Assembly: GCF_001677475.2 (NCBI RefSeq)
Contig: NZ_CP015229.1
Direction: 5' to 3' (one strand)
Length of the DNA stretch: 64,000 nt
Source: Escherichia coli
GTDB taxonomy: Bacteria; Pseudomonadota; Gammaproteobacteria; Enterobacterales; Enterobacteriaceae
The notes under the pieces were generated by a model, which saw only the letters and a list, made by a program, of their open reading frames with translations, searched no databases and was not told where the DNA came from. Each line of letters begins with the position of its first letter. Position 1 is the first letter of the stretch. Below are positions 34,698-51,786 of this stretch, piece after piece. The translations under genes and the position numbers were made by a program.

Positions 34698-34794
34698 TGG
34701 CTACTTCTTCGATTCGTAAGCGAAAACTGCCTTAAACTCCATACCACGTTCTCTGATACTCAACTCACACAACGAGTCGCCTACCATCAGCGTG

Positions 34795-34827
34795 AATCAT
34801 CGTACTGTACAACACAGTACGATGATT
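34795..34827. promoter_or_regulatory. Perfect 14-bp inverted repeat in the cas3-cysH intergenic region (candidate operator or terminator)
   Basis: AATCATCGTACTGT-acaac-ACAGTACGATGATT; no U-tract on either side. Confidence 0.4.
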
Positions 34828-35059
34828 GCCACAAGGGCATATTTTGTCAGCATGTCTTGCCTCCCTGCAAAGAAGAGACTAACATTCGAATTGTTTGGGT
34901 TCGAACGTAAGCCTCAGGTTGATAGAAATATCGCCTGGGGCTTTTGTCCATCTGGAACCTCGCGAATGCTTAACGCCAGACAGCCTCAAGCACCCGACGC
35001 CATTCTATACCTGATAATTCTTCCAGCGGCGTTCACGTTTAAAATCAGGAATGCTGCTC

Positions 35060-39752: not shown

Positions 39753-40118
39753 ATGATGTCCACCACGTTATTTAAAGATTTCACCTTCGAAGCCGCTCAC
39801 CGCTTACCACACGTCCCGGAAGGACATAAATGTGGTCGCCTGCACGGGCATTCCTTTATGGTGCGACTGGAAATTACCGGGGAAGTCGATCCGCATACGG
39901 GCTGGATTATCGATTTCGCTGAACTGAAAGCGGCGTTTAAGCCAACTTATGAGCGCCTCGATCACCATTATCTCAATGATATTCCAGGCCTGGAAAACCC
40001 GACCAGCGAGGTTTTAGCAAAATGGATTTGGGATCAGGTTAAACCCGTTGTGCCGCTGTTAAGTGCGGTGATGGTAAAAGAAACCTGCACCGCAGGTTGT
40101 ATCTATCGCGGCGAATGA
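39753..40118 (+). CDS. queD: 6-carboxy-5,6,7,8-tetrahydropterin synthase (PTPS family)
   Basis: Start at ATG 39753 ([18 protein letters not shown]…HGHSF…), 121 aa; ORF track extends 28 codons upstream. Confidence 0.93.
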
Positions 40119-40195
40119 TAAGAGTGTGTCGGCGGTCAATTTCCCTTAAGTAACGCTATGTTAGGGTATTGTGTTCTGGATATCTGGGGCATGAC

Positions 40196-41467
40196 ATGGA
40201 AGACGACTGCGACATTATTATTATTGGTGCCGGTATTGCAGGCACCGCTTGCGCGTTACGCTGCGCGCGAGCGGGTTTATCCGTTTTGTTACTGGAACGC
40301 GCTGAAATCCCCGGCAGCAAAAATCTTTCCGGCGGGCGTTTATATACCCAGGCGCTCGCGGAACTCCTCCCACAATTTCATCTGACCGCGCCTCTTGAAC
40401 GACGCATCACTCACGAAAGCCTTTCCCTGTTAACGCCGGATGGCGCAACGACGTTTTCCAGCTTACAGCCCGGCGGTGAATCCTGGAGTGTATTACGTGC
40501 ACGTTTCGATCCGTGGCTGGTTGCCGAAGCCGAAAAAGAAGGTGTCGAATGCATCCCTGGTGCGACGGTGGATGCGCTGTATGAAGAAAACGGCAGGGTG
40601 TGTGGTGTCATTTGTGGTGACGATATTCTCCGCGCCCGTTATGTGGTGCTGGCAGAAGGTGCCAACAGCGTCCTGGCTGAACGTCACGGGTTAGTGACTC
40701 GTCCTGCTGGCGAAGCGATGGCGTTGGGGATCAAAGAAGTGCTGTCGCTGGAAACATCCGCTATTGAAGAACGTTTTCATCTGGAGAATAACGAAGGCGC
40801 AGCGTTGCTGTTCAGCGGCGGGATCTGTGATGACTTACCCGGCGGCGCATTTCTTTATACTAATCAACAAACGCTCTCGTTAGGGATTGTTTGCCCGCTC
40901 TCTTCCCTTACGCAAAGTCGTGTTCCGGCAAGCGAGCTGCTGGCTCGCTTTAAAACGCATCCGGCAGTGCGCCCGCTTATCAAAAACACGGAATCACTGG
41001 AGTATGGTGCGCATCTGGTGCCAGAAGGTGGCTTGCACAGTATGCCGGTGCAATACGCCGGTAACGGCTGGCTGCTGCTGGGCGATGCGTTGCGCAGTTG
41101 CGTCAATACCGGAATTTCCGTGCGCGGCATGGATATGGCGCTAACTGGCGCGCAGGCGGCGGCACAAACGCTGATAAGCGCCTGCCAGCATCGCGAGCCG
41201 CAAAATCTGTTTGCGCTTTATCATTACAACGTAGAGCGCAGCCTGCTGTGGGATGTTCTACAGCGCTATCAGCATGTTCCGGCGCTTTTGCAACGCCCTG
41301 GCTGGTATCGGGCGTGGCCTGCGCTAATGCAGGATATTTCCCGTGATTTATGGGATCAGGGTGATAAACCTGTTCCGCCGCTGCGCCAGTTGCTCTGGCG
41401 TCATTTACGTCGTCATGGCCTGTGGCATCTGGCGGGCGATGTTGTCAGGAGTATTCGATGTCTGTAG
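40196..41467 (+). CDS. ygcN: FAD-dependent oxidoreductase, FixC / ETF-quinone-oxidoreductase-like
   Basis: Start at ATG 40196 (MEDDCDIIIIGAGIAGTACA…, FAD-binding GxGxxG), 423 aa; ORF-track start is TTG 40169. Confidence 0.88.
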   Translation: MEDDCDIIIIGAGIAGTACALRCARAGLSVLLLERAEIPGSKNLSGGRLYTQALAELLPQFHLTAPLERRITHESLSLLTPDGATTFSSLQPGGESWSVLRARFDPWLVAEAEKEGVECIPGATVDALYEENGRVCGVICGDDILRARYVVLAEGANSVLAERHGLVTRPAGEAMALGIKEVLSLETSAIEERFHLENNEGAALLFSGGICDDLPGGAFLYTNQQTLSLGIVCPLSSLTQSRVPASELLARFKTHPAVRPLIKNTESLEYGAHLVPEGGLHSMPVQYAGNGWLLLGDALRSCVNTGISVRGMDMALTGAQAAAQTLISACQHREPQNLFALYHYNVERSLLWDVLQRYQHVPALLQRPGWYRAWPALMQDISRDLWDQGDKPVPPLRQLLWRHLRRHGLWHLAGDVVRSIRCL

Positions 41468-41718
41468 CCCGTAATCTCTGGCGCGCTGCTGATGCGCCGC
41501 ACATTGTTCCGGCTGACTCCGTTGAGCGTCAGACGGTACAACGGTTGATTAACGCTTGTCCGGCTGGTCTTTTTTCGCTCACACCGGAAGGTGACTTACG
41601 CGTTGATTATCGCGGCTGCCTGGAGTGTGGCACCTGCCGTTTGCTGTGCGACGAATCAACACTACAACAGTGGCGCTATCCGCCTTCCGGATTCGGCATC
41701 ACCTACCGTTTTGGATAA
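41458..41718 (+). CDS. ygcO: Ferredoxin-like protein (FixX-like)
   Basis: Start at ATG 41458 (GGAG SD 8 nt upstream), 86 aa; overlaps ygcN stop. Confidence 0.85.
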   Translation: MSVARNLWRAADAPHIVPADSVERQTVQRLINACPAGLFSLTPEGDLRVDYRGCLECGTCRLLCDESTLQQWRYPPSGFGITYRFG

Positions 41719-41734
41719 ATAATAAGGATAATTT

Positions 41735-42310
41735 ATGCCCCTCTTACACCTGCTCCGCCAGAATCCGGTGATTGCTGCCGTTAAAGATAATGCCAGCCTG
41801 CAACTGGCAATCGACTCTGAATGCCAGTTTATTTCCGTGTTGTACGGCAATATCTGCACCATTAGTCAAATCGTTAAAAAGATTAAAAATGCCGGAAAAT
41901 ATGCTTTTATTCATGTTGATTTGCTGGAAGGCGCGTCAAATAAAGAAGTGGTGATTCAGTTTTTGAAACTGGTGACTGAGGCGGATGGAATTATCAGCAC
42001 CAAAGCATCGATGCTAAAAGCGGCAAAAGCGGAAGGTTTTTTCTGTATTCATCGTCTGTTTATTGTTGATTCAATTTCGTTTCACAACATTGATAAGCAA
42101 GTTGCGCAATCGAATCCGGATTGTATTGAGATCCTGCCAGGCTGTATGCCCAAAGTGCTGGGCTGGGTGACGGAGAAAATCCGCCAACCGCTGATTGCCG
42201 GCGGGCTGGTGTGCGATGAAGAAGATGCGCGTAATGCGATTAACGCGGGTGTTGTGGCGCTTTCCACCACGAATACCGGGGTCTGGACGTTAGCGAAAAA
42301 ATTGCTTTGA
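41735..42310 (+). CDS. ygcP: GlpP-family (glycerol-3-phosphate-responsive-antiterminator-like) protein
   Basis: 191 aa; G3P_antiterm-type protein by recall of E. coli ygcP annotation. RNA-binding antiterminator function is inferred from the family only. Confidence 0.85.
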   Translation: MPLLHLLRQNPVIAAVKDNASLQLAIDSECQFISVLYGNICTISQIVKKIKNAGKYAFIHVDLLEGASNKEVVIQFLKLVTEADGIISTKASMLKAAKAEGFFCIHRLFIVDSISFHNIDKQVAQSNPDCIEILPGCMPKVLGWVTEKIRQPLIAGGLVCDEEDARNAINAGVVALSTTNTGVWTLAKKLL

Positions 42311-42339
42311 CGGGATACTCGTAACGAGTTGAATTTGTG

Positions 42340-42420
42340 TGATTTGTAGGCTGCACGCCACATCCGACATTCAGCGCCTGATACGACGCTTGACGCTTGA
42401 CGCGTCTTATCAGGCTTGCA
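42340..42420. repeat. REP/BIME-type palindromic elements between convergent ygcP and ygcQ
   Basis: GCCTGATACGACGCTTGACGCTTGACGCGTCTTATCAGGC at 42376-42415, plus an adjacent partial REP arm. Confidence 0.6.
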
Positions 42421-42463
42421 AGTCCCCAGCCCAGAACCGTAGGCAGGATCATCCGGCAGCACG

Positions 42464-43324
42464 TTATTGGCAATCTGCGTGAATGGTTGTCACCAGTGCC
42501 TCCAGTACCGCTTTCCAGTCATCTACCACGCCAACATCTGCCTGTGAAAATACCGCTGCGCTGGCGTCATGATTAATCGCCACCACAAACTTGCTATTGC
42601 GTACGCCCGCCATTAACGCTGCTGCGCCGGAAGCGCCAACAACAATGCACACCTCAGGCGCCAGCAGATGTCCGGAAATACCAATCACTTTTTCAGCATC
42701 AACGCCACCGTTCATCACTCGCGCCCGACTGTAGCCCACTTCGGCTCCCAGCTTTTCTGCCAGCATAGCAATTTCCTGGTTATCTGCCTCTCCGCCCTGC
42801 CCCACCACCAGCACCTGTCTGGCCTCAGCTAATGGGTCGCGGGTAACATTTTTCAGGTTTTCTATGCTAACCAGCCAGTCGGGAAGCGCACCTGGGACAA
42901 TGTTCAGTTGCTGCATACCAGAGGGCAACGTGGCGTTTTTATCTGCTCCCGCCTGACGTGCCAGCGAAAGGCATAGCGGGCGTTTTTCTGTTTGCAGCGT
43001 CGCCGTTAGCGCATTTCCCCAGTGGGATTTGCGCACGCTTACGGTTGGAATATCTAACGAAGTCACCTGGCAGATGCTTGCACCATGTAAACGCCAGGCC
43101 AGCCGGGTCGACAGTTCATCGCCAAATGTTCCCGGCGGAAAGAGAACAACGTCCGCAGGCGTTCGCTGCCACTGTTCCACCAGCGCATCCAGCACCTGTT
43201 CCGCCACTACGGGCTGTGGTTCAATCTGCCAGTGCGCCAGCGTACAACCGCTGAAATCCTGCGCCGCCAGCCAGCTCGCTATTGCGGCATTCTCCTGATT
43301 TATTGTCACAATTGCGATATTCAT
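42464..43324 (-). CDS. ygcQ: Electron transfer flavoprotein alpha-subunit-like (FixB-like)
   Basis: Start at ATG 43324 (MNIAIVTINQ…), 286 aa, ATGA overlap with ygcR stop. Confidence 0.88.
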   Translation of the reverse strand: MNIAIVTINQENAAIASWLAAQDFSGCTLAHWQIEPQPVVAEQVLDALVEQWQRTPADVVLFPPGTFGDELSTRLAWRLHGASICQVTSLDIPTVSVRKSHWGNALTATLQTEKRPLCLSLARQAGADKNATLPSGMQQLNIVPGALPDWLVSIENLKNVTRDPLAEARQVLVVGQGGEADNQEIAMLAEKLGAEVGYSRARVMNGGVDAEKVIGISGHLLAPEVCIVVGASGAAALMAGVRNSKFVVAINHDASAAVFSQADVGVVDDWKAVLEALVTTIHADCQ

Positions 43325-44100
43325 GGCTGCATCCTTTGGCGTAAATAGTCCTGCCATAGCTTTTGCGCTTTTTCTGCTACCGTTTGCCCATCAATCAGCG
43401 TCGCTCCGCGTCGTTGCTCTGCTCTTGCCAGTTGCAGACACTGCATCGCTGGCATTTCGGCAGCAACAGTTTTACGGATAATTTCTGCTTTCCCCGCCGC
43501 CATTCGCTGACGCATTCCCGGTACTGGCAAGGCCACTTCACCGCACTGACGCACGGCAATCACCGCAGGCAAGCGAACCCGGCAACAGCGCAGCCCGTTT
43601 TCAGTACGCTGTTCGAGGGTGATAAACGGCGCGTCGAGAGTAAAACGCTCCACCTGGGTGAAGCAGGGCCAGCCCAGCATTTCCGCCAGCAAAAATGGCG
43701 TTTGCCCATTCTGCCCTTCGCTGCTTTGGCAGCCGGTAATTATCAGATCCAGCGGATTCTGACGCTGCCATTCGGCAATATGGCGAGCGACAAATTCCGG
43801 CGCAAAGCGCAGATCTGCCGCCGTCTCCAGCAATACAGCTTCCTCAAACCCAAGCGCCATGAGATAGCGCAGCCAGTGCAACGCCCGTTCATTCCCCATG
43901 CTCAACGCGGTTAAAGACATCGACGTACCGTTTTTTCTCTGCGCCAACAGCAGCGCGGCGGCAGCCTGTTCATCAGCACCGAGTAAACTTCGCAGAAACG
44001 AAACATCCGGTCCGCTATTACCCTGAGCCGCCGCCTGCCACTCTTTTTCCGCCAGCATTCCGGCATCCGGTTCGGCTTTAAACGCTAACAGAATGTTCAT
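43321..44100 (-). CDS. ygcR: Electron transfer flavoprotein beta-subunit-like (FixA-like)
   Basis: 259 aa; ETF beta fold; overlaps ygcS stop. Confidence 0.88.
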   Translation of the reverse strand: MNILLAFKAEPDAGMLAEKEWQAAAQGNSGPDVSFLRSLLGADEQAAAALLLAQRKNGTSMSLTALSMGNERALHWLRYLMALGFEEAVLLETAADLRFAPEFVARHIAEWQRQNPLDLIITGCQSSEGQNGQTPFLLAEMLGWPCFTQVERFTLDAPFITLEQRTENGLRCCRVRLPAVIAVRQCGEVALPVPGMRQRMAAGKAEIIRKTVAAEMPAMQCLQLARAEQRRGATLIDGQTVAEKAQKLWQDYLRQRMQP

Positions 44101-45415
44101 TCGTACCTCCTACATTTCCCGCCGCCACCAGCGGGAGTGCTTTGGTTTCTGGTGCCCATAGCCAGGTCACGACAAAACCAACCAACAACACTGCCGCCAG
44201 GAGCAATAAGGTGACTTGCATTCCCCACTGCGCCAGCACCCACGGCAGCAGGCCAGTACTTACCGCCGCGCCCAACCGACTCATGGCGGTGGCAAAACCG
44301 ACGCCCAGCGAGCGAATGTCAGTAGGAAAACTTTCCGCAGGCAAAATGCCCACCAGATTACTGACTGCCGAAATGGTGGTGCTGAAGAGAACAAAAAGCA
44401 GCAGCGTTAATGAACTGCCGGAAGGCAAACAGGCCATCACGACCAGCGTTGCCGCCAGCAGCAAAAAACTTCCCAGCAAAAATTTGCGATGTGCCAGCAG
44501 GTGCGTCAGAACTAATCCCAGCAGCGCACCCACAATTAACAACGCATTAAGCATCAGGCTAGCGGTCAACGCATCTTCCAGACCAATAGTCTGGGCGATA
44601 GTTGGCAGCCAGGTATAAATCACAAACCATGGGATTACGAGGCAGACAAAGAAGACACTGTTAAACGCCGTGCGCCGCCAGTAGCGCGAAGAGAACAAGG
44701 TTTTGATGTGTTTATGGGTCGCCGTTGCCACTTCATCGCCCAGTAAAACATGGGGACCAAAATAGCGATGCACGATAGCGTGAGCTTCAGCAAAACGCCC
44801 CTGTCGCAGTAGCCAGCGTGGCGATTCTGGCGTTCCCCAGCGTAATAACGTAATCAATAACGCGGGCAGAGCTGCCGATGCCAGCAGCCAGCGCCAGGCC
44901 TCCGGGCTTTCGCTAATAAAGTGATGTCCGGCAATACTTGCCAGCACATAGCCTACGGTCCACACCACGCTGAACGCGCCCAGCAAAATACCGCGGTGGC
45001 GGCGCGGGGAAAATTCAGCCAGCAAGGTGTGACCGACTGAGTAATCGCCTCCCAGACCAATGCCAATCAAAATGCGCAGTCCAATAAGATGCTCTGGCGT
45101 GGTGGCAAAAAATTGTAAAAACGAAGCAAGCGTAATCAGCAAAAAGCTGAAGGTGAAGATTTTTTGTCGCCCAATATGGTCGGAGATCCAGCCCAGAACC
45201 AGGCTGCCAAGAAACAAACCAAGGAGTGCTGAGCCGCCAATCATTCCCGCCATAAACGGCGTCAGTTGCATGGCGGGCGTAAGCTGAATAATGGCGTAAC
45301 CAATGACGCCGAGGACATAACCGTCGGTCAGGTGTGCGCCGAAAGTGAGCGCAGCAATGCGGCAGTGAAAACGGTTAAGTGGTAAATCATCCATTCGCAC
45401 CGGTGAAGTGTTCAT
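44078..45415 (-). CDS. ygcS: MFS transporter (sugar-porter-like)
   Basis: Start at ATG 45415 (MNTSPVRMDDLPLNRFH…), 445 aa; 12-TM MFS. Confidence 0.85.
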   Translation of the reverse strand: MNTSPVRMDDLPLNRFHCRIAALTFGAHLTDGYVLGVIGYAIIQLTPAMQLTPFMAGMIGGSALLGLFLGSLVLGWISDHIGRQKIFTFSFLLITLASFLQFFATTPEHLIGLRILIGIGLGGDYSVGHTLLAEFSPRRHRGILLGAFSVVWTVGYVLASIAGHHFISESPEAWRWLLASAALPALLITLLRWGTPESPRWLLRQGRFAEAHAIVHRYFGPHVLLGDEVATATHKHIKTLFSSRYWRRTAFNSVFFVCLVIPWFVIYTWLPTIAQTIGLEDALTASLMLNALLIVGALLGLVLTHLLAHRKFLLGSFLLLAATLVVMACLPSGSSLTLLLFVLFSTTISAVSNLVGILPAESFPTDIRSLGVGFATAMSRLGAAVSTGLLPWVLAQWGMQVTLLLLAAVLLVGFVVTWLWAPETKALPLVAAGNVGGTNEHSVSV

Positions 45416-45435
45416 CTTTACCCCTTCATTGTCCG

Positions 45436-45467
45436 GTAATAAGAACGGCTTCTCGCCTGAGAAGCCG
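45436..45467 (-). terminator. Intercistronic hairpin between ygcU and ygcS (possible attenuator or partial terminator)
   Basis: CGGCTTCTC-gcct-GAGAAGCCG 9-bp stem, followed on the minus strand by TTCTTATTACC. Confidence 0.35.
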
Positions 45468-45508
45468 AAAAGGCAACGCTCCGTCATCGCGGAACGCTGC
45501 CTGACACA

Positions 45509-46963
45509 TTATTTTTCAATCGGATAGATAGTACCCGTATTCATAATGCCGTTAGGATCGAACTGCTTTTTCAGCCCTTCCAGCAACGCCCACGCGCTGC
45601 CGTGTTCCAGTTTGCTCCAGTGAACGCGATGTTTACCGATACCGTGGTGGTGCACCATCGAACCACCGAGGCGAATGGTTTCTTCGCAGATGATTTTGTT
45701 GAGCGGATTGTGGTACTTGTCGATTTCCTCTTCCGGCTTACAGTCAACGACGTTGTAGTCGTAGACGAAGTACATGTTGGTGCCGTTCTGGTAGCTATGA
45801 GAGGAGTGACCGCCCAGCATGGTGATGTCGTCGGCGTGCGGGAACTCGGTACGAATACGGTTAATAACGCTTTCGTAGATTTCGTGAATGCAGCTCCAGC
45901 AGCCGGACACTTCGGTGGTAAAGCCCATGTTGCCGGTTTTGAGGATCTGCACACGTTCAGCGGCCACTTTATCCGGCCCCCAGTTCAGGTGATTAAACCA
46001 GGTTTCGATCAGCTTGCTGTCCACTCGCTGGCATTGCGGGTAACGTGCCACGATTTCCGCAATCCCTTCGCCTGTCGCCTTCGCAATGCGAGGGTTACCT
46101 TCAGCCATAAAGATCAGCACACATTTACCATCGGCAAAATGGGTGAAGTGTTGGGTGCCATCTTCAGCGTCATACAAACGAGCGATCGACGGACGATACC
46201 CTTCCACCATGATTTCACGCAGGATGTTGAAGCCGGTTTTCATGTCTTCCAGGATATAGCCGTAGAAGAGGTTGTTTTCCGGGGTGAACTTAAAGATTTT
46301 CACAGTTACTTCAGTGATATAGCACAATGCACCTTCGTTGCCGATGATGATGTGACGAATGTCCGGGCCTGCCGCGCGGCGTGGTACGTTTTTAATGCGT
46401 GTTACGGTGCCATCAGCCAATACTGCTTCCAGACCAACGACCATATCTTCGATTGCGCCGTAGAGTGTGGAGAACTGCCCGATACTGCGGGTTGCTACCA
46501 GGCCGCCCATCTGCGCCAGCGGCTTTGACTGCGGAGAATGCCCCGTGGTGTAACCTTTTTCACGCAACGCGTTTTCCAGCACTTCCAGCGGAACACCGCA
46601 TTGCGCCGTGGCCTGCATATTCTCAATATCAATATTAATGATTTGATTCATGGCAGAGCCGTCGAGCACCACCGAGTTTTCCACAACGGTTTCCAGCCCA
46701 CCTTCGGTGGCGGAAGCACCGGTACGTGGCACACCGTTAATTTTGTGCGCATTCATAAAATTCAGCACACGGGATACTTGTTCTGTGGAACCGAGTTTTA
46801 CGACCGCTGCCGGAATCGGCAAAGTATAAATGCCATGAATATCCGGAAATTTACGAAAACGGTCAATACTGTTCTTCTTTAATACTGTTTCATCGGTAAT
46901 TATGCGATCTGCACCAACAATTTCCTTTAGCTGGTCGACAATCGCTGCGCGAGATAAAGACAT
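45509..46963 (-). CDS. ygcU: FAD-linked oxidase, alkyl-DHAP-synthase/glycolate-oxidase-like
   Basis: 484 aa; PCMH-type FAD-binding domain followed by FAD-oxidase C-terminal domain. Confidence 0.88.
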   Translation of the reverse strand: MSLSRAAIVDQLKEIVGADRIITDETVLKKNSIDRFRKFPDIHGIYTLPIPAAVVKLGSTEQVSRVLNFMNAHKINGVPRTGASATEGGLETVVENSVVLDGSAMNQIINIDIENMQATAQCGVPLEVLENALREKGYTTGHSPQSKPLAQMGGLVATRSIGQFSTLYGAIEDMVVGLEAVLADGTVTRIKNVPRRAAGPDIRHIIIGNEGALCYITEVTVKIFKFTPENNLFYGYILEDMKTGFNILREIMVEGYRPSIARLYDAEDGTQHFTHFADGKCVLIFMAEGNPRIAKATGEGIAEIVARYPQCQRVDSKLIETWFNHLNWGPDKVAAERVQILKTGNMGFTTEVSGCWSCIHEIYESVINRIRTEFPHADDITMLGGHSSHSYQNGTNMYFVYDYNVVDCKPEEEIDKYHNPLNKIICEETIRLGGSMVHHHGIGKHRVHWSKLEHGSAWALLEGLKKQFDPNGIMNTGTIYPIEK

Positions 46964-47032
46964 AGTAATTCCTTCCTGATAATAAAAATGGAATAATCAT
47001 TAATAAGAGAAAACAGAAACCACCGTTATGGA

Positions 47033-47818
47033 TTAGCGCACTAAATAACCACCATCGACCACTAATAAATGCCCGTTAACATAATTTGAAGCCGGACTTG
47101 CGAGGAATACGGCTGCGCCCATTAAATCCTGAGTATCGCCCCAACGGTTTGCTGGAATATGATCAAGAACGCGCTGATTGGTTTCTGGATTACTGCGTGT
47201 CGCCAGCGTAATATCTGTTGCATAATAGCCAGGGGCAATACCATTTACCTGAATATTATATTGACCTAGTTCATCACAATAAGCTTTGGTGAATCCGGCA
47301 AGAGCATGTTTAGTGGCAGAATATGCAGGTGACCATTGTCCACCTAAGTAAGAGAATAATGAACAGATATTAATGATTTTACCGCTTTTCTGCGGGATCA
47401 TAATTTTTGCAGCTTCATAGCTTAACTCGAATGCGGCGGTCAGGTTCACATCAATCATCGGGTCCCAGTCGGCACGACCGAAGTCCAGCACCTTATTCAG
47501 CTTACAAATACCGGCATTGTTAATCAGAATATCGACGGTACCGAAACGTTCGCAACAGGCGGCGATTATCTTCTGCGGCGCGCCTTCTGCGGTGATATCC
47601 ACCTGCATGAAGTCCACCTCAACACCCTGTTTTTCAATCATTTCCTTTGTTTCGCCGTTATCTTTAACGAAGCTTGGAATAAAGATATTTGCGCCTGCTT
47701 TGGCCAGCGCCATGGCAAATGCCTGGCCTAAACCGCTATTCCCGCCGGTAACAATTGCGGTTTTACCTTTCAGGGAGAAAAAATCCATTGAGAACGCATT
47801 GAGAGATTCGATTGACAT
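47033..47818 (-). CDS. ygcW: Short-chain dehydrogenase/reductase (SDR)
   Basis: Start at ATG 47818 (MSIESLNAFS…), GGAG SD, 261 aa; TGGNSGLG cofactor motif, YxxxK active site. Confidence 0.88.
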   Translation of the reverse strand: MSIESLNAFSMDFFSLKGKTAIVTGGNSGLGQAFAMALAKAGANIFIPSFVKDNGETKEMIEKQGVEVDFMQVDITAEGAPQKIIAACCERFGTVDILINNAGICKLNKVLDFGRADWDPMIDVNLTAAFELSYEAAKIMIPQKSGKIINICSLFSYLGGQWSPAYSATKHALAGFTKAYCDELGQYNIQVNGIAPGYYATDITLATRSNPETNQRVLDHIPANRWGDTQDLMGAAVFLASPASNYVNGHLLVVDGGYLVR

Positions 47819-47840
47819 AGTTAGCTCCAATTTCCGTAAG

Positions 47841-47888
47841 GCAAAAAAAAAGAAAGGTAACTTCCCCCGCGAGAGGGAAGTTACCTTT
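47841..47888 (-). terminator. Intrinsic-terminator-like hairpin plus U9 tract in the ygcW 5' leader (candidate attenuator)
   Basis: Minus-strand transcript: AAAGGUAACUUCCC-UCUCGCGG-GGGAAGUUACCUUU (14-bp stem) then CUUUUUUUUU, ending about 24 nt upstream of the ygcW ATG. No gene ends upstream on this strand. Confidence 0.6.
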
Positions 47889-48064
47889 CTCATTATCTCT
47901 GGTAACTGGAGATAATTTTTATCATAAGGGCATAATCGCTAATGTGATCGTAATCACAGTGTGATATTCGAATTGTCAAATAATTTTAAAAAGCAGAAGC
48001 GTGATTACTCTCACACAACACCACTGCTTTCCATGTTATTTCTTATTGCAATTACTAGAGACCT

Positions 48065-48112
48065 GAGAAAAGTAATCCACCTGAAAGGGCGGCTTACTTT
48101 TCTCTTTTTTTT
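48065..48112 (+). terminator. Intrinsic-terminator-like hairpin plus U8 tract in the yqcE 5' leader (candidate attenuator)
   Basis: GAGAAAAGTAA-(18-nt loop)-TTACTTTTCTC (11-bp perfect stem) then TTTTTTTT, ending 25 nt upstream of the yqcE ATG. Confidence 0.6.
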
Positions 48113-48136
48113 GTCTATTACAAATGGGAATACGAT

Positions 48137-49414
48137 ATGCAACACAACTCATATCGCCGTTGGATAACCCTCGCGATAATTAGTTTTAGCGGCGGCGTTA
48201 GTTTCGACCTGGCTTATTTACGTTATATTTATCAAATTCCCATGGCGAAATTTATGGGATTCAGCAATACCGAGATAGGTTTAATAATGAGTACCTTTGG
48301 TATTGCGGCTATTATTCTTTATGCCCCCAGCGGCGTTATTGCCGATAAATTTTCACACCGCAAAATGATTACTTCCGCGATGATCATTACCGGATTACTG
48401 GGTCTGTTAATGGCAACATATCCACCGCTGTGGGTAATGCTCTGTATTCAGGTCGCCTTTGCGATAACGACGATTTTAATGCTGTGGTCGGTGTCGATTA
48501 AAGCCGCATCGTTGCTGGGCGATCATAGCGAGCAAGGGAAAATTATGGGCTGGATGGAAGGGCTGCGCGGCGTCGGTGTAATGTCGCTGGCGGTGTTTAC
48601 CATGTGGGTCTTTTCTCGCTTTGCACCGGATGACAGCGCCAGCCTGAAAACGGTCATTATTATCTATAGTGTGGTTTACATTCTGCTGGGCATTTTGTGT
48701 TGGTTTTTTGTTAGCGATAACAACAACCTGCGCAATACCAATAACGAAGAAAAACAGTCATTCCAGCTTAGCGACATCCTGGCCGTTTTGCGCATCAGCA
48801 CCACCTGGTATTGCAGCATGGTGATTTTTGGTGTCTTCACCATCTACGCCATTCTGAGTTACTCCACCAACTATCTGACCGAAATGTACGGCATGTCGCT
48901 GGTGGCGGCGAGCTACATGGGGATTGTGATCAACAAAATATTCCGCGCACTGTGCGGCCCACTTGGTGGCATTATCACCACCTACAGCAAAGTGAAATCC
49001 CCTACCCGCGTGATCCAAATCCTTTCCGTACTCGGCTTGCTGGCGTTAACTGCCCTGCTCGTCACGAACTCTAACCCGCAATCGGTCGCGATGGGGATTG
49101 GCCTGATTTTACTGCTGGGATTCACCTGTTACGCCTCACGCGGGCTGTACTGGGCCTGCCCTGGCGAAGCGAGAACACCGTCTTACATTATGGGCACCAC
49201 GGTAGGTATTTGTTCGGTGATTGGATTCCTGCCGGATGTCTTCGTTTACCCGATTATCGGCTACTGGCAAGACACCCTGCCCGCTGCAGAAGCCTACCGC
49301 AATATGTGGCTGATGGGCATGGCGGCGCTTGCCATGGTGATCGTCTTTACCTTTTTGCTGTTCCAAAAAATTCGTACTGCTGATAGCACCCCTGCTATGG
49401 CTAGCAGCAAGTAA
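48137..49414 (+). CDS. yqcE: MFS transporter
   Basis: 425 aa; 12-TM MFS profile. Confidence 0.88.
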   Translation: MQHNSYRRWITLAIISFSGGVSFDLAYLRYIYQIPMAKFMGFSNTEIGLIMSTFGIAAIILYAPSGVIADKFSHRKMITSAMIITGLLGLLMATYPPLWVMLCIQVAFAITTILMLWSVSIKAASLLGDHSEQGKIMGWMEGLRGVGVMSLAVFTMWVFSRFAPDDSASLKTVIIIYSVVYILLGILCWFFVSDNNNLRNTNNEEKQSFQLSDILAVLRISTTWYCSMVIFGVFTIYAILSYSTNYLTEMYGMSLVAASYMGIVINKIFRALCGPLGGIITTYSKVKSPTRVIQILSVLGLLALTALLVTNSNPQSVAMGIGLILLLGFTCYASRGLYWACPGEARTPSYIMGTTVGICSVIGFLPDVFVYPIIGYWQDTLPAAEAYRNMWLMGMAALAMVIVFTFLLFQKIRTADSTPAMASSK

Positions 49415-49440
49415 GTCCAGAAAATTACAGGAGAAAAATC

Positions 49441-50919
49441 ATGTCGAAAAAATACATCATAGGGATTGATGGCGGAAGTCAGAGCACAAAAGTGGTGATG
49501 TATGATCTGGAAGGTAATGTGGTTTGCGAAGGCAAAGGCTTATTGCAGCCGATGCACACGCCAGATGCCGATACCGCAGAACATCCTGACGACGATTTAT
49601 GGGCATCATTATGTTTTGCCGGTCACGATTTGATGAGTCAGTTTGCCGGGAATAAAGAAGATATTGTCGGTATTGGTCTGGGATCCATCCGTTGCTGCCG
49701 TGCGTTATTGAAAGCCGATGGCACGCCAGCTGCGCCGTTGATTAGCTGGCAGGATGCACGCGTTACACGCCCTTACGAACATACGAATCCTGACGTGGCA
49801 TATGTCACCTCTTTTTCAGGTTATCTGACGCATCGCTTAACCGGCGAGTTTAAAGACAATATCGCCAACTATTTTGGTCAGTGGCCGGTGGATTATAAGA
49901 CCTGGGCATGGAGCGAAGATGCCGCGGTAATGGAAAAGTTTAATATCCCCCGCCAGATGCTTTTTGACGTGCAAATGCCGGGCACCGTTCTTGGGCATAT
50001 CACACCTCAAGCCGCGCTGGCGACGCATTTCCCGGCAGGACTGCCGGTTGTTTGTACCACCAGTGATAAACCGGTAGAAGCTCTGGGAGCTGGGTTACTG
50101 GATGATGAAACGGCGGTGATTTCTCTTGGCACCTACATCGCGCTGATGATGAACGGTAAAGCACTGCCGAAAGATCCAGTAGCGTACTGGCCGATTATGT
50201 CTTCTATTCCGCAAACATTGCTGTATGAAGGTTACGGTATCCGCAAAGGCATGTGGACAGTAAGCTGGCTGCGCGACATGTTAGGCGAGTCGTTAATTCA
50301 GGATGCCAAAGCACAGGATCTTTCACCGGAAGATTTGCTCAACAAAAAAGCTTCTTATGTGCCGCCTGGCTGTAATGGTCTGATGACGGTGCTGGACTGG
50401 CTGACCAATCCGTGGGAACCGTACAAACGCGGGATTATGATCGGCTTTGATTCCAGCATGGATTACGCATGGATATATCGTTCGATACTGGAAAGCGTGG
50501 CGCTGACGCTGAAGAACAATTACGACAATATGTGTAATGAAATGAATCACTTTGCAAAGCATGTGATCATTACTGGCGGCGGTTCGAACAGCGATCTGTT
50601 TATGCAGATTTTTGCCGACGTGTTCAACCTTCCGGCACGCCGTAACGCCATTAATGGTTGTGCAAGCCTGGGGGCAGCGATTAATACGGCGGTAGGTCTG
50701 GGGCTATACCCGGATTACGCAACGGCTGTCGACAAAATGGTTCGCGTGAAAGATATCTTTATGCCTGTTGAGAGCAACGCCAAACGCTACGACGCGATGA
50801 ATAAAGGCATTTTCAAAGACCTAACCAAACACACTGATGTGATCCTGAAAAAATCGTATGAAGTGATGCATGGTGAGCTGGGAAATGCGGATTCTATCCA
50901 GAGCTGGTCGAATGCGTGA
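49441..50919 (+). CDS. ygcE: FGGY-family carbohydrate kinase
   Basis: 492 aa; N-terminal IGIDGGSQSTKVVMYD (actin-like ATPase phosphate-1 motif), C-terminal GGGSNSDLFMQIFADV. Confidence 0.9.
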   Translation: MSKKYIIGIDGGSQSTKVVMYDLEGNVVCEGKGLLQPMHTPDADTAEHPDDDLWASLCFAGHDLMSQFAGNKEDIVGIGLGSIRCCRALLKADGTPAAPLISWQDARVTRPYEHTNPDVAYVTSFSGYLTHRLTGEFKDNIANYFGQWPVDYKTWAWSEDAAVMEKFNIPRQMLFDVQMPGTVLGHITPQAALATHFPAGLPVVCTTSDKPVEALGAGLLDDETAVISLGTYIALMMNGKALPKDPVAYWPIMSSIPQTLLYEGYGIRKGMWTVSWLRDMLGESLIQDAKAQDLSPEDLLNKKASYVPPGCNGLMTVLDWLTNPWEPYKRGIMIGFDSSMDYAWIYRSILESVALTLKNNYDNMCNEMNHFAKHVIITGGGSNSDLFMQIFADVFNLPARRNAINGCASLGAAINTAVGLGLYPDYATAVDKMVRVKDIFMPVESNAKRYDAMNKGIFKDLTKHTDVILKKSYEVMHGELGNADSIQSWSNA

Positions 50920-50952: not shown

Positions 50953-50964
50953 GAACATACCTAA

Positions 50965-51786
50965 ATGGTTATCCCCGCTAACGCGGGGAACTCACTGAAA
51001 ACACCGGCGAGATCGTATTTTTTGCCGGTTTATCCCCGCTCGCGCGGGGAACTCTACCGGAAGGCAGGCACATTAGATCAGGTGATCGGTTTATCCCCGC
51101 TCGCGCGGGGAACTCCAGTGAGCGGAAGAAGAATGACTAACAGAGAGCGGTTTATCCCCGCTCGCGCGGGGAACTCCCCAGCCACAACAGCCACGCGTCG
51201 CGCTGTTCCGGTTTATCCCCGCTCGCGCGGGGAACTCGGAAACCGCCCCGGCGGTGGTTGGCTGTTTGCCGGTTTATCCCCGCTCGCGCGGGGAACTCTT
51301 TGCGCCGGAAATAGGAATCGTATTCGGTCTCGGTTTATCCCCGCTCGCGCGGGGAACTCTTATGCATCTCATCAAGCTTGTCGCCAAACGACGGTTTATC
51401 CCCGCTCGCGCGGGGAACTCTTAAATCGCGCTGGAAAAAAATGGTTTTTGCGCGGTTTATCCCCGCTCGCGCGGGGAACTCACACCCCGTTGCAATAAAT
51501 GGTCTGGGGGCTGCGGTTTATCCCCGCTCGCGCGGGGAACTCCAAACGCTTCTTCGTAGGCAGCACTGTAGGCCCGGTTTATCCCCGCTCGCGCGGGGAA
51601 CTCGGTGAAAAGATGAGTGCATACTGGTTTGTTTTCGGTTTATCCCCGCTCGCGCGGGGAACTCTCTTTTCCCGCTAATCACGACCAGATCCTGTCCGGT
51701 TTATCCCCGCTCGCGCGGGGAACTCGTAAAACCTCCTCGCGCCCACAATCGCAGCGGCGGTTTATCCCCGCTCGCGCGGGGAACTC
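50965..51786 (-). CRISPR. CRISPR array 2 (type I-E): 13 identical 29-nt repeats plus 1 degenerate terminal repeat, 13 spacers of 32 nt
   Basis: Repeat CGGTTTATCCCCGCTCGCGCGGGGAACTC recurs at 51026 + 61k for k=0..12. Degenerate distal repeat (GGTTATCCCCGCTAACGCGGGGAACTC) at 50966-50993. Leader on the queE side. Confidence 0.97.

Follow-up and report, generated by a model that had tools for sequence, protein, structure and literature searches.

The ygc gene cluster of Escherichia coli as a candidate catabolic regulon with conserved two-state leader RNAs

Introduction

In Bacillus subtilis, the antiterminator protein GlpP together with glycerol-3-phosphate (G3P) relieves transcription termination in the leaders of glpD, glpFK, and glpTQ. 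In the glpD 5' untranslated region (UTR), a short helix (GGUC/GACC) forms around the loop CUGAGAUGAGGAGA, and the 3' arm of this helix begins the terminator. We know of no GlpP-type antitermination described in gamma-proteobacteria. Here we describe the ygc gene cluster of Escherichia coli, located at positions 39753-50919 of a 64-kb stretch of DNA (64,000 nucleotides, referred to as the window), in which two divergent operons each begin with a conserved leader RNA able to fold either as a terminator or as an antiterminator, and in which a separate unit encodes YgcP, a protein of the GlpP family.

Three further described systems resemble the redox genes of this cluster. The E. coli fixABCX genes adjoin caiTABCDE for carnitine, in which CaiT is a BCCT protein, and ydiQRST is another FixABCX-like set. 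Alkyl-dihydroxyacetonephosphate synthase (ADPS, or AGPS; PDB 2UUU and 4BBY) is a flavoenzyme that carries out no net redox reaction. In the lactate dehydrogenase complex LctBCD (PDB 7QH2), the gene for a flavoenzyme of the VAO family lies beside the genes for the beta and alpha subunits of an electron-transfer flavoprotein (ETF).

The stretch holds eleven genes in three units: queD-ygcN-ygcO-ygcP and yqcE-ygcE on the plus strand, and ygcW-ygcU-ygcS-ygcR-ygcQ on the minus strand (Table 1). This gene content and layout, given in a preliminary description made from the sequence alone, agree with the open reading frame (ORF) list and with the RefSeq annotation of the closest genome and of K-12. 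When the ten proteins of the cluster were scanned with NCBIfam at its curated cutoffs, all matches were at the family level and none of the ten reached an equivalog cutoff. Nor did we find a functional assignment or substrate for the ygc genes in the literature on the gene names and the domain combination, consistent with the uncharacterised status stated previously. The genes are mentioned in CRP and promoter lists, in MazF proteomics, and in a D-serine study, where deletion of ygcU made no difference, while the "ygcO"/"YgcO" of a PTS-Ntr review (PMC13104625) is a misprint for the potassium efflux protein YcgO and is irrelevant to this locus. The locus and its uncharacterised status were already known; its leader switches, cross-phylum conservation, ADPS-type active site, and quaternary-amine link are new.

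On balance, and with moderate confidence, we favour the reading that ygc is a chromosomal catabolic regulon kept by selection, controlled by CRP and by YgcP-dependent leaders, in which a kinase, a short-chain dehydrogenase (SDR), and the flavoprotein YgcU process a betaine-type substrate.

Two-State Leader RNAs of the Divergent Operons

The ygcW leader folds at -42 kcal/mol (z -6.6) and contains two overlapping structures. The two arms of the antiterminator helix, 47907-47901 and 47885-47879, enclose the loop AGAGAUAAUGAGAAA; the terminator is a perfect 19-bp stem (47891-47850, minus strand) followed by U9, just upstream of the ygcW ribosome-binding site. This leader is 100% identical to that of K-12 despite a synonymous divergence of about 0.1. 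A second copy of the element, upstream of yqcE, has the antiterminator arms AAUUAC and GUAAU and a terminator stem at 48065-48104 followed by U8; it is present in 5063 of 5426 E. coli genomes, and RefSeq annotates no feature there. The covariance model built for the element found no third copy upstream of ygcN in the window, and an Rfam search of 13.5 kb and of the 351-nt regulatory region gave nothing near a gathering score (the best match within 47800-48150 reached 26 bits against a threshold of 90). An intrinsic terminator between a promoter and the first gene is a hallmark of attenuation, and the sole regulator encoded in the locus is the antiterminator-family protein YgcP.

The sequence upstream of the SDR gene was examined in 86 YgcU-anchored loci, 80 from species-representative genomes and six from earlier look-ups. 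A near-identical element is found in all Enterobacterales, Photobacterium, Halobacillus, Thalassobacillus, Virgibacillus, Geosporobacter, Dethiosulfatibacter, Sporomusa, and several metagenome-assembled genomes (MAGs) of Bacillota, with the consensus cAGUUACyAGAGAnnAuGAGAAArGUAACUUCC, a variable apical stem, GGAAGUUrCyUUUCUC, and then U8-9. Nearly every Enterobacterales locus has a second, divergent copy; elsewhere, extra copies are located upstream of BCCT or MFS transporter genes.

Both structures are retained through compensatory change. Among 38 leaders from three phyla, the 7-bp antiterminator helix (AGUUACC/GGUAACU) is 99% paired with 3 compensatory pairs, the outer stem of the terminator is 97% paired with three pairs changed on both sides, and column 31 of the alignment changes in concert with each of its two alternative partners (C-G-C in 16 sequences, U-A-U in 22). 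In a second test, 91 elements were aligned to a covariance model whose structure excludes the antiterminator helix. This helix was nevertheless 93% paired, with compensatory changes at five of its seven pairs (one position being G-C in 61 elements and A-U in 26), as compared with 16-54% pairing in controls whose partners were slid by one to three columns. The ygcW and yqcE leaders are conserved two-state RNAs in which the terminator and the antiterminator are mutually exclusive.

YgcP and the Comparison with the glp Regulon

YgcP belongs to the GlpP family: it matches Pfam G3P_antiterm (PF04309) over model positions 1-173 of 173 (E 7e-63) and, over its whole length, the Listeria GlpP structure 3KTS (E 4e-28). 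NCBIfam gave it no match. Its ratio of nonsynonymous to synonymous change relative to K-12 (pN/pS) is 0.04. The preliminary description had only named YgcP; it is probably the key regulator of the cluster, with both divergent operons carrying what would be its RNA target. The leader element occurs in 54 of 55 loci that encode YgcP and is absent from 22 of 31 loci that do not (Fisher p 2e-12, uncorrected for phylogeny), and the nine loci with a leader and without YgcP are mostly short contigs or belong to genomes that encode YgcP elsewhere. Desulfobacterota clusters with a GntR or LysR regulator instead have no such leader.

The ygc system resembles the B. subtilis glp regulon in several respects. 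The regulator is of the same family (PF04309) and is encoded apart from its targets, which are several operons, each with a 5' intrinsic terminator; a short helix displaying a GAGAU..GAG purine loop overlaps the 5' arm of the terminator; an FGGY-family kinase could make a phosphorylated inducer; and catabolite control is added, by CRP in ygc and by CcpA in B. subtilis. The two differ in the helix sequence (AGUUAC/GUAAC in ygc), in the host, a gamma-proteobacterium, and in the controlled genes, which in ygc encode an SDR, an ADPS-like flavoenzyme, and an ETF rather than GlpF, GlpK, GlpD, GlpT, or GlpQ. At a canonical GlpP locus, beside a G3P dehydrogenase of the anaerobic type, the leader reads GCUA[GAGAGAUGAGAGUA]UAGC and is followed by a terminator. 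The best match of the ygc covariance model in this locus falls exactly on that leader, but at just 15.8 bits (E 0.1). The ygc leaders probably represent a distinct subclass of GlpP-type leaders.

We regard it as highly improbable that the leaders are instead metabolite-binding riboswitches or plain bidirectional insulating terminators, with YgcP acting elsewhere. Conserved, structured elements in 5' UTRs would fit that explanation, as would the nearly palindromic ygcW hairpin, which scores on both strands, and the binding of YgcP is a matter of inference. However, the conserved unpaired nucleotides number only about 15, probably not enough to form a typical ligand pocket; across phyla, the element and YgcP tend to occur together; and its architecture and loop motif are common to leaders on which GlpP is known to act. 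A plain terminator, moreover, would need no covarying alternative helix, and each copy is preceded by a promoter and followed by a start codon rather than flanked by convergent genes.

CRP Sites between ygcW and yqcE

The divergent region between ygcW and yqcE (318 bp) shares 99% identity with that of K-12, rising to 100% in the 120 nt that precede the ygcW start codon. Synonymous divergence of the flanking genes from K-12 is 7-16%, so that the intergenic region is more conserved than the genes surrounding it. The region contains a perfect consensus CRP site (47943-47958; TGTGATCGTAATCACA), which was bound both in chromatin immunoprecipitation (ChIP) data from enterotoxigenic E. coli (ETEC) and in vitro (estimated Kd, 1.7 nM); yqcE-ygcE has been listed among CRP-activated operons. 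This experimental binding supports the catabolic role proposed in the preliminary description. The inferred ygcW transcription start would be about 41 nt downstream of this site. By sequence, there is a second CRP-like site (CGTGATTACTCTCACA), invariant in three E. coli lineages, about 41 nt upstream of the yqcE leader start, a placement that mirrors that of the known site with respect to the ygcW leader. Each of the divergent promoters may have its own class II CRP site.

Core Enzymes: YgcU, YgcW, and YgcE

YgcU had been described as an FAD-linked oxidase. The FAD family holds, and YgcU is of the ADPS type rather than a generic oxidase. By family profile, its closest solved relatives are ADPS proteins (E 1e-55), with which it shares the FAD_binding_4 and FAD-oxidase_C fold family, and others, including glycolate oxidase, LctD, LDHD, and D2HGDH, match at 8e-36 or weaker. 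R262, Y398, and H438-H440 of YgcU (GGSMVHHHGIGK) align to Arg419, Tyr578, and His615-617 of guinea-pig ADPS (GGSLSHHHGVGK), which are its catalytic residues, and they are invariant in 13 sequences from 4 phyla. A deposited Tyr-to-Phe variant agrees with this catalytic role. YgcU is strongly conserved, with a pN/pS of 0.02 relative to K-12 and 65-73% identity to its counterparts in Bacillota, Desulfobacterota, Actinomycetes, and SAR324.

YgcU does not have the full-length architecture of ADPS: it comprises 484 residues, its alignment starts at ADPS residue 158-180 of 658, and it lacks the N-terminal extension of about 150-180 residues. Its gene, unlike that of ADPS, is accompanied by genes for a kinase, an SDR, an ETF, and small-molecule importers rather than for lipid synthesis, a context that argues against lipid synthesis by YgcU, and the dedicated ETF beside it suggests net electron transfer. 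With the ADPS catalytic residues kept, YgcU would most likely act on a keto compound similar to dihydroxyacetone phosphate (DHAP), beside a leaving group.

Could YgcU and YgcRQ form an LctBCD-like dehydrogenase-ETF complex for D-2-hydroxyacids of the lactate or glycolate type, with the remaining genes only loosely associated? The ETF genes are adjacent, the weaker solved relatives listed above include LctD and other enzymes of this kind, and many anaerobes carry in their ygc-type clusters an LctD-like second FAD oxidase together with a second ETF whose alpha subunit has a ferredoxin-type domain. Yet ADPS is much closer to YgcU than these enzymes are, the second oxidase, which E. coli lacks, has an EHG motif where YgcU has HHHG, and linkage to a kinase, an SDR, and an antiterminator across phyla is not a feature of lactate-ETF clusters. 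Electrons in the ygc system would, in addition, reach quinone through FixC/FixX-like proteins and not take part in confurcation with ferredoxin. We consider an LctBCD-like complex very unlikely.

For YgcW, the closest solved relatives are 2-deoxy-D-gluconate 3-dehydrogenases. Its scores are below the curated cutoffs (NF005390, 350.1 bits against 369; TIGR01832, 275.5 bits against 338.85); since the KduD equivalog score is not reached, an identification as KduD was rejected. YgcE has xylulokinase (144 bits) and the autoinducer-2 kinase LsrK (141 bits) as its top NCBIfam matches, both far under the cutoffs, and LsrK and glycerol kinases as its closest solved relatives. It was rejected as a GlpK because it scores 106 bits on TIGR01311 against a cutoff of 590 and keeps three of the five glycerol-binding positions of GlpK (R84, W104, and D246), with E85 and Y136 replaced. 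This mixed outcome is compatible with a substrate that has a glycerol-like moiety as well as with one that does not. For the E. coli YgcE, identity is higher with the kinases of Bacillota clusters (52-58%) than with those of Serratia, Rahnella, Budvicia, Erwinia, and Pantoea (42-50%), which suggests exchange of the kinase gene within the Enterobacterales.

Related Clusters in Other Phyla and the Substrate Class

The three enzymes recur together across the 86 loci, with YgcU in 84, a YgcW-type SDR adjoining it in 79, and an FGGY kinase in 71. In Halobacillus, Thalassobacillus, and Virgibacillus, a minimal operon consists of the leader, the SDR, the kinase, YgcU, and a BCCT or Opu importer, with no ETF; the trio would thus appear sufficient to lead into central metabolism or to some other known intermediate. 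Importers outside the Enterobacterales are of the BCCT type in 14 loci and OpuAC/OpuB-type ABC systems in 6. Characterised substrates of BCCT and Opu importers are overwhelmingly trimethylammonium or dimethylsulfonium compounds, with a few related compatible solutes such as ectoine and proline.

Genes for MttB-family methyltransferases are found beside the cluster in Desulfobacterota and in Bacillota MAGs, and one such locus additionally encodes a corrinoid protein together with a pterin-binding methyltransferase. Non-pyrrolysine MttB proteins act by removing methyl groups from quaternary amines. When metagenomes were scanned with the leader in its Bacillota form, 20 stretches matched; in these, the leader precedes SDR-kinase-YgcU-ETF operons, precedes MttB-family genes directly (with a PanB-like gene and an Opu ABC operon after them in some cases), or precedes Opu operons. 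In those organisms, the methyltransferase and a betaine-type importer are thus in the same regulon. The betaine-type importers, MttB, and the shared leader together favour a hydroxylated quaternary amine over an ordinary sugar, and a further hint to this class comes from the likeness of YgcS to organic-cation and NiaP-type carriers. Our best guess for the substrate class is a small hydroxylated quaternary-ammonium (betaine-type) compound, possibly with a glycerol-like moiety. Carnitine, hydroxyproline betaine, trimethylammonio-propanediol, and deacylated head groups of betaine lipids were considered; none of them explains every gene, and none is claimed. In the cai system the transporter, CaiT, is likewise a BCCT protein, as are importers of the ygc-type clusters in other phyla.

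The preliminary description had proposed a sugar, polyol, or acid as the substrate, which the evidence from other phyla makes doubtful. Such a compound would be imported by the MFS transporters, phosphorylated by YgcE, and dehydrogenated by YgcW and YgcU, with electrons passing to the ETF. An FGGY kinase, an SDR similar to KduD and gluconate 5-dehydrogenase, transporters matching a sugar-porter model (YgcS) and a galactonate-transporter model (YqcE), and CRP control typical of sugar operons are all what this explanation would predict. We nevertheless judge it unlikely, because across the 86 loci the trio has no conserved isomerase, aldolase, dehydratase, or epimerase beside it, no curated cutoff for a sugar enzyme is reached, BCCT or Opu importers accompany the trio in four other phyla, the same leader controls MttB methyltransferase genes, and YgcU, with its HHHG motif, is of the ADPS type rather than the polyol-oxidase or 2-hydroxyacid-dehydrogenase type.

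A second route for glycerol or G3P, with YgcE as a glycerol-type kinase, YgcU and the ETF as an alternative G3P dehydrogenase, and YgcP sensing G3P, is quite unlikely. It would account for the G3P-responsive family to which YgcP belongs, for the many glycerol kinases among the solved relatives of YgcE and the GlpK positions that it keeps, and for the binding of a DHAP derivative by the nearest relatives of YgcU. YgcE, however, scores about 105 bits on GlpK models with cutoffs of 498-590 and lacks two of the GlpK residues, as described above, betaine-type importers and MttB make no sense for glycerol, and the extra SDR would be needless. E. coli, moreover, already has glpK, glpD, and glpABC.

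Several other genes accompany the cluster in particular taxa. An enteric variant without ETF (Erwinia, Pantoea, and Serratia proteamaculans) and a SAR324 locus add a protein similar to Fae (formaldehyde-activating enzyme), an aldo-keto reductase, and an aldehyde dehydrogenase of the succinate-semialdehyde dehydrogenase (SSADH) type. The Fae gene adjoins that for YgcS or for the BCCT protein in Erwinia, the Enterobacterales isolate CwR94, S. proteamaculans, and the SAR324 MAG. Enterobacterales are not known to have tetrahydromethanopterin. Neighbours in other taxa encode proline-racemase-like, PanB-like, HIBADH-like, aspartase-like, Fae-like, aldo-keto reductase, and SSADH-type proteins; they are suggestive but too inconsistent to name a compound. 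A contig labelled as a Planctomycetota MAG (JADFMM010000147.1) has a YgcU 99% identical to that of the window and DNA 97% identical to it, and is almost certainly Escherichia contamination.

Electron-Transfer Proteins and Transporters

All four components of the FixABCX-like set noted previously (ETF beta, ETF alpha, FixC-like, and FixX-like proteins) are recognised at the family level, each below its equivalog cutoff. YgcN scores 377 bits with NCBIfam PRK10015 and 362 bits with FixC, both under the curated cutoffs, and its Serratia orthologue contains the Pfam domains ETFQO_UQ-bd and ETF-QO_FixC_C. YgcO reaches 84 bits with FixX (cutoff 166); its gene starts within ygcN, overlapping the stop codon by 10 nt, which suggests that the two are translationally coupled. 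YgcQ matches ETF-alpha models at 63-75 bits, far under the cutoffs, and YgcR matches ETF-beta models at 27-44 bits, with ygcR overlapping ygcQ by 4 nt. As in fixABCX and ydiQRST, these genes are located beside those of a small-molecule pathway. They differ from both sets in that two units of opposite strand share the four genes between them, that all score well under the Fix and Ydi cutoffs, and that their presumed partner is an ADPS-like flavoprotein of the VAO family rather than an acyl-CoA dehydrogenase or reductase. The ETF subunits diverge fast: relative to Citrobacter or Klebsiella, the E. coli YgcQ retains 58-62% identity and YgcR about 70%, as compared with 92-96% for YgcU, YgcW, and YgcP, and within E. 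coli the pN/pS of the ETF subunits is likewise at the top of the set. ETF genes are present beside the trio in 56-59 of the 86 loci, and genes for FixC/FixX-like proteins in Enterobacterales loci only.

YgcS matches TIGR00895 (183 bits), TIGR00879 (144 bits), and the organic-cation model TIGR00898 (137 bits). It is reported to be a distant homologue of the niacin transporter NiaP (about 26% identity), and its overexpression reportedly raises the yield of nicotinamide mononucleotide (NMN). The start of ygcS is placed at 45415 in K-12 and at 45487 by PGAP in TUM20902. Within the disputed 5' stretch (45416-45508) there is a 9-bp GC-rich hairpin (45467-45446, minus strand), which favours the shorter YgcS and a structured ygcU-ygcS spacer. 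YqcE matches TIGR00893 at 68 bits. The yqcE-type MFS gene is paired with the kinase gene in Enterobacterales, and in Photobacterium an MFS_1 gene is located just upstream of the kinase gene.

Proposed Mechanism

According to the regulon model that we favour, ygcW-U-S-R-Q and yqcE-ygcE would start at CRP-dependent promoters and each transcribe a leader of about 70 nt first, which by default would fold into a strong intrinsic terminator. The alternative 7-bp helix would take up the 5' half of the terminator and display the conserved purine-rich loop (AGAGAnnAUGAGAAA). YgcP, expressed from the separate ygcN-O-P unit, would hold this antiterminator helix when carrying a phosphorylated intermediate made by YgcE, mirroring the way in which GlpP and G3P open the glp operons of B. 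subtilis. The substrate would enter through YgcS and/or YqcE, and YgcE would phosphorylate a hydroxyl group, yielding the inducer of YgcP. YgcW, an NAD(P)-dependent SDR, would oxidise an adjacent secondary alcohol to a ketone, and YgcU would apply ADPS-like flavin chemistry to the carbon beside that ketone. In E. coli, the flavin of YgcU would be joined to the quinone pool through the YgcR/YgcQ ETF and YgcN/YgcO. Functionally, the locus would act as a glp-type regulon of the B. subtilis kind coupled to a FixABCX-type set for electron transfer. The order of the steps, the direction of electron flow, the products, the identity of the inducer, and the substrate class are all inferred.

Several points weigh against this model. 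The co-occurrence statistic for leader and YgcP is uncorrected for phylogeny, and the 15.8 bits on the canonical glp leader leave the shared architecture and a short motif as the grounds for kinship between ygc and glp leaders. Binding of loaded YgcP to the antiterminator hairpin, and the ligand that it would take, are predictions. The E. coli locus has MFS transporters and no BCCT, Opu, or MttB gene, so that the enteric substrate may differ from that of Bacillota and Desulfobacterota, perhaps being a related compound. A substrate with a single hydroxyl group, like carnitine or choline, would leave the kinase without an obvious role. Several loci (Halobacillus, Pantoea, and Erwinia) lack ETF genes, and these genes evolve much faster than the enzymes, which leaves adjacency as the link between YgcU and the ETF; and an ADPS reaction, with no net redox change, sits uneasily with a dedicated ETF-to-quinone route.

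A bolder version, to which we assign only a small probability, would make the trio a widespread and unrecognised pathway for hydroxylated quaternary-ammonium compounds under a GlpP-type switch. Oxidation and phosphorylation would build a DHAP-like ketone beside the charged group, and YgcU would break the adjacent C-N or C-O bond without oxygen, giving a product at the level of triose phosphate and a betaine or methylamine. In anaerobes, MttB would then demethylate the released amine, which E. coli might export. If this is true, the GlpP-type protein-RNA device controlling the pathway would be the first described in E. coli.

Conservation and Genomic Surroundings

Among 5426 complete E. coli genomes, 5425 match the stretch 39753-50919, in every case on the chromosome, and 5060 contain at least 80% of it. 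Its identity is 98.1% to the best RefSeq complete E. coli genome, 96.8% to K-12, and 95.7% at the lowest, a range that is unusually diverse for core genome; with a top identity of just 98.1%, the window comes from a lineage that has no representative among the RefSeq complete E. coli genomes. Each gene is equal in length to its K-12 copy, with 95-98% nucleotide identity and a pN/pS of 0.00-0.28 (the lowest values being those of queD, ygcU, ygcW, ygcP, and ygcE, and the highest those of ygcN, ygcO, and ygcR, which are electron-transfer genes), indicating that the genes are real, intact, and under purifying selection. The GC content across the stretch is ordinary (43-57%), and no mobility genes are present. 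The cluster had been called an island; in the sense of horizontal transfer this is rejected, given its place in the core genome, its GC content, and the lack of mobility genes. About 365 of the 5426 genomes cover less than 80% of the stretch (hits include NZ_CP053731.1 and NZ_OZ197100.1). In NZ_CP053731.1, nothing remains but queD and the kinase gene's 3' end, suggesting that the module was cleanly deleted as a whole, and one E. coli genome has IS1397 inserted within the stretch.

For the queD-ygcN-ygcO-ygcP unit, the layout described previously stands, and queD as a part of the module does not. It is a lineage-specific neighbour, found beside the ygc cluster only in the group of Escherichia, Citrobacter, Klebsiella, and Enterobacter, and missing from the clusters of Serratia, Rahnella, Budvicia, and Pantoea and from all non-enteric loci. 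Read-through from queD into ygcN is possible, because no terminator is visible in the 77-nt spacer between them.

The flanks also agree with the preliminary description: cysJIH and cas3/Cascade genes are located upstream, and a type I-E CRISPR array with a 61-nt period (about 50960-51605) downstream. A 177-residue ORF at 50965-51498 is an artefact running through the CRISPR repeats, with the recurring peptides VYPRSRGEL, FIPARAGNS, and GLSPLARGT. The closest genome has a Hok/Gef toxin gene annotated between cas3 and cysH (about 34700-34850 in the window), a place at which K-12 has just the sokX RNA. A palindrome of the repetitive extragenic palindromic (REP) type at 42349-42420 (GCCTGATACGACGC...GCGTCTTATCAGGC) fills the gap between the convergent genes ygcP and ygcQ; its only Rfam match, to naRNA4, is weak (25.5 bits; threshold 59.5).

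Table 1. Features of the ygc locus, with Fae genes of related loci. Positions are those of the window, except where a locus handle (L038, L043, L050, or L054) precedes them.
Feature	Position	Strand	Description or basis
queD	39753-40118	+	Queuosine-biosynthesis flanking gene; ORF list, RefSeq annotation of closest genome and K-12
ygcN	40196-41467	+	FixC/ETF-QO-like FAD oxidoreductase
ygcO	41458-41718	+	FixX-like ferredoxin
ygcP	41735-42310	+	GlpP-family antiterminator protein; predicted regulator of both leaders
ygcQ	42464-43324	-	ETF alpha (FixB-like) subunit
ygcR	43321-44100	-	ETF beta (FixA-like) subunit
ygcS	44078-45415 (or to 45487 with longer start)	-	MFS transporter of sugar-porter/aromatic-acid/organic-cation type
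ygcU	45509-46963	-	FAD enzyme, alkyl-DHAP-synthase type; GlcD-like FAD oxidase by NCBIfam
ygcW	47033-47818	-	KduD-like SDR
ygcW leader RNA	47842-47911	-	Terminator scan, fold, covariance model (85 bits), covariation of both helices
CRP site	47943-47958		Perfect consensus, read from sequence
Second CRP-like site	48000-48015		Sequence only; invariant in three E. coli lineages
yqcE leader RNA, second copy	48046-48112	+	Covariance model (52 bits, E 9e-9); fold
yqcE	48137-49414	+	MFS transporter, weak likeness to anion:cation symporter (ACS) family
ygcE	49441-50919	+	FGGY-family kinase
Fae	L038 2386-2889; L043 2583-3101; L050 2298-2801; L054 6890-7390		Formaldehyde-activating enzyme, curated cutoff passed

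Implications

The ygc genes are long-standing genes of unknown function in the best-studied bacterium and hold one of its three FixABCX-like sets. A leader switch with a dedicated GlpP-like protein gives a direct handle on the unknown inducer, and the links to betaine importers and MttB in other phyla narrow the candidate compounds. Should the substrate turn out to be a plain sugar derivative, the regulatory finding would still stand as a clear case of GlpP-type antitermination outside Firmicutes. It is also possible that gut Enterobacteriaceae process a quaternary amine by a route that has not been described, which would bear on microbial methylamine metabolism.

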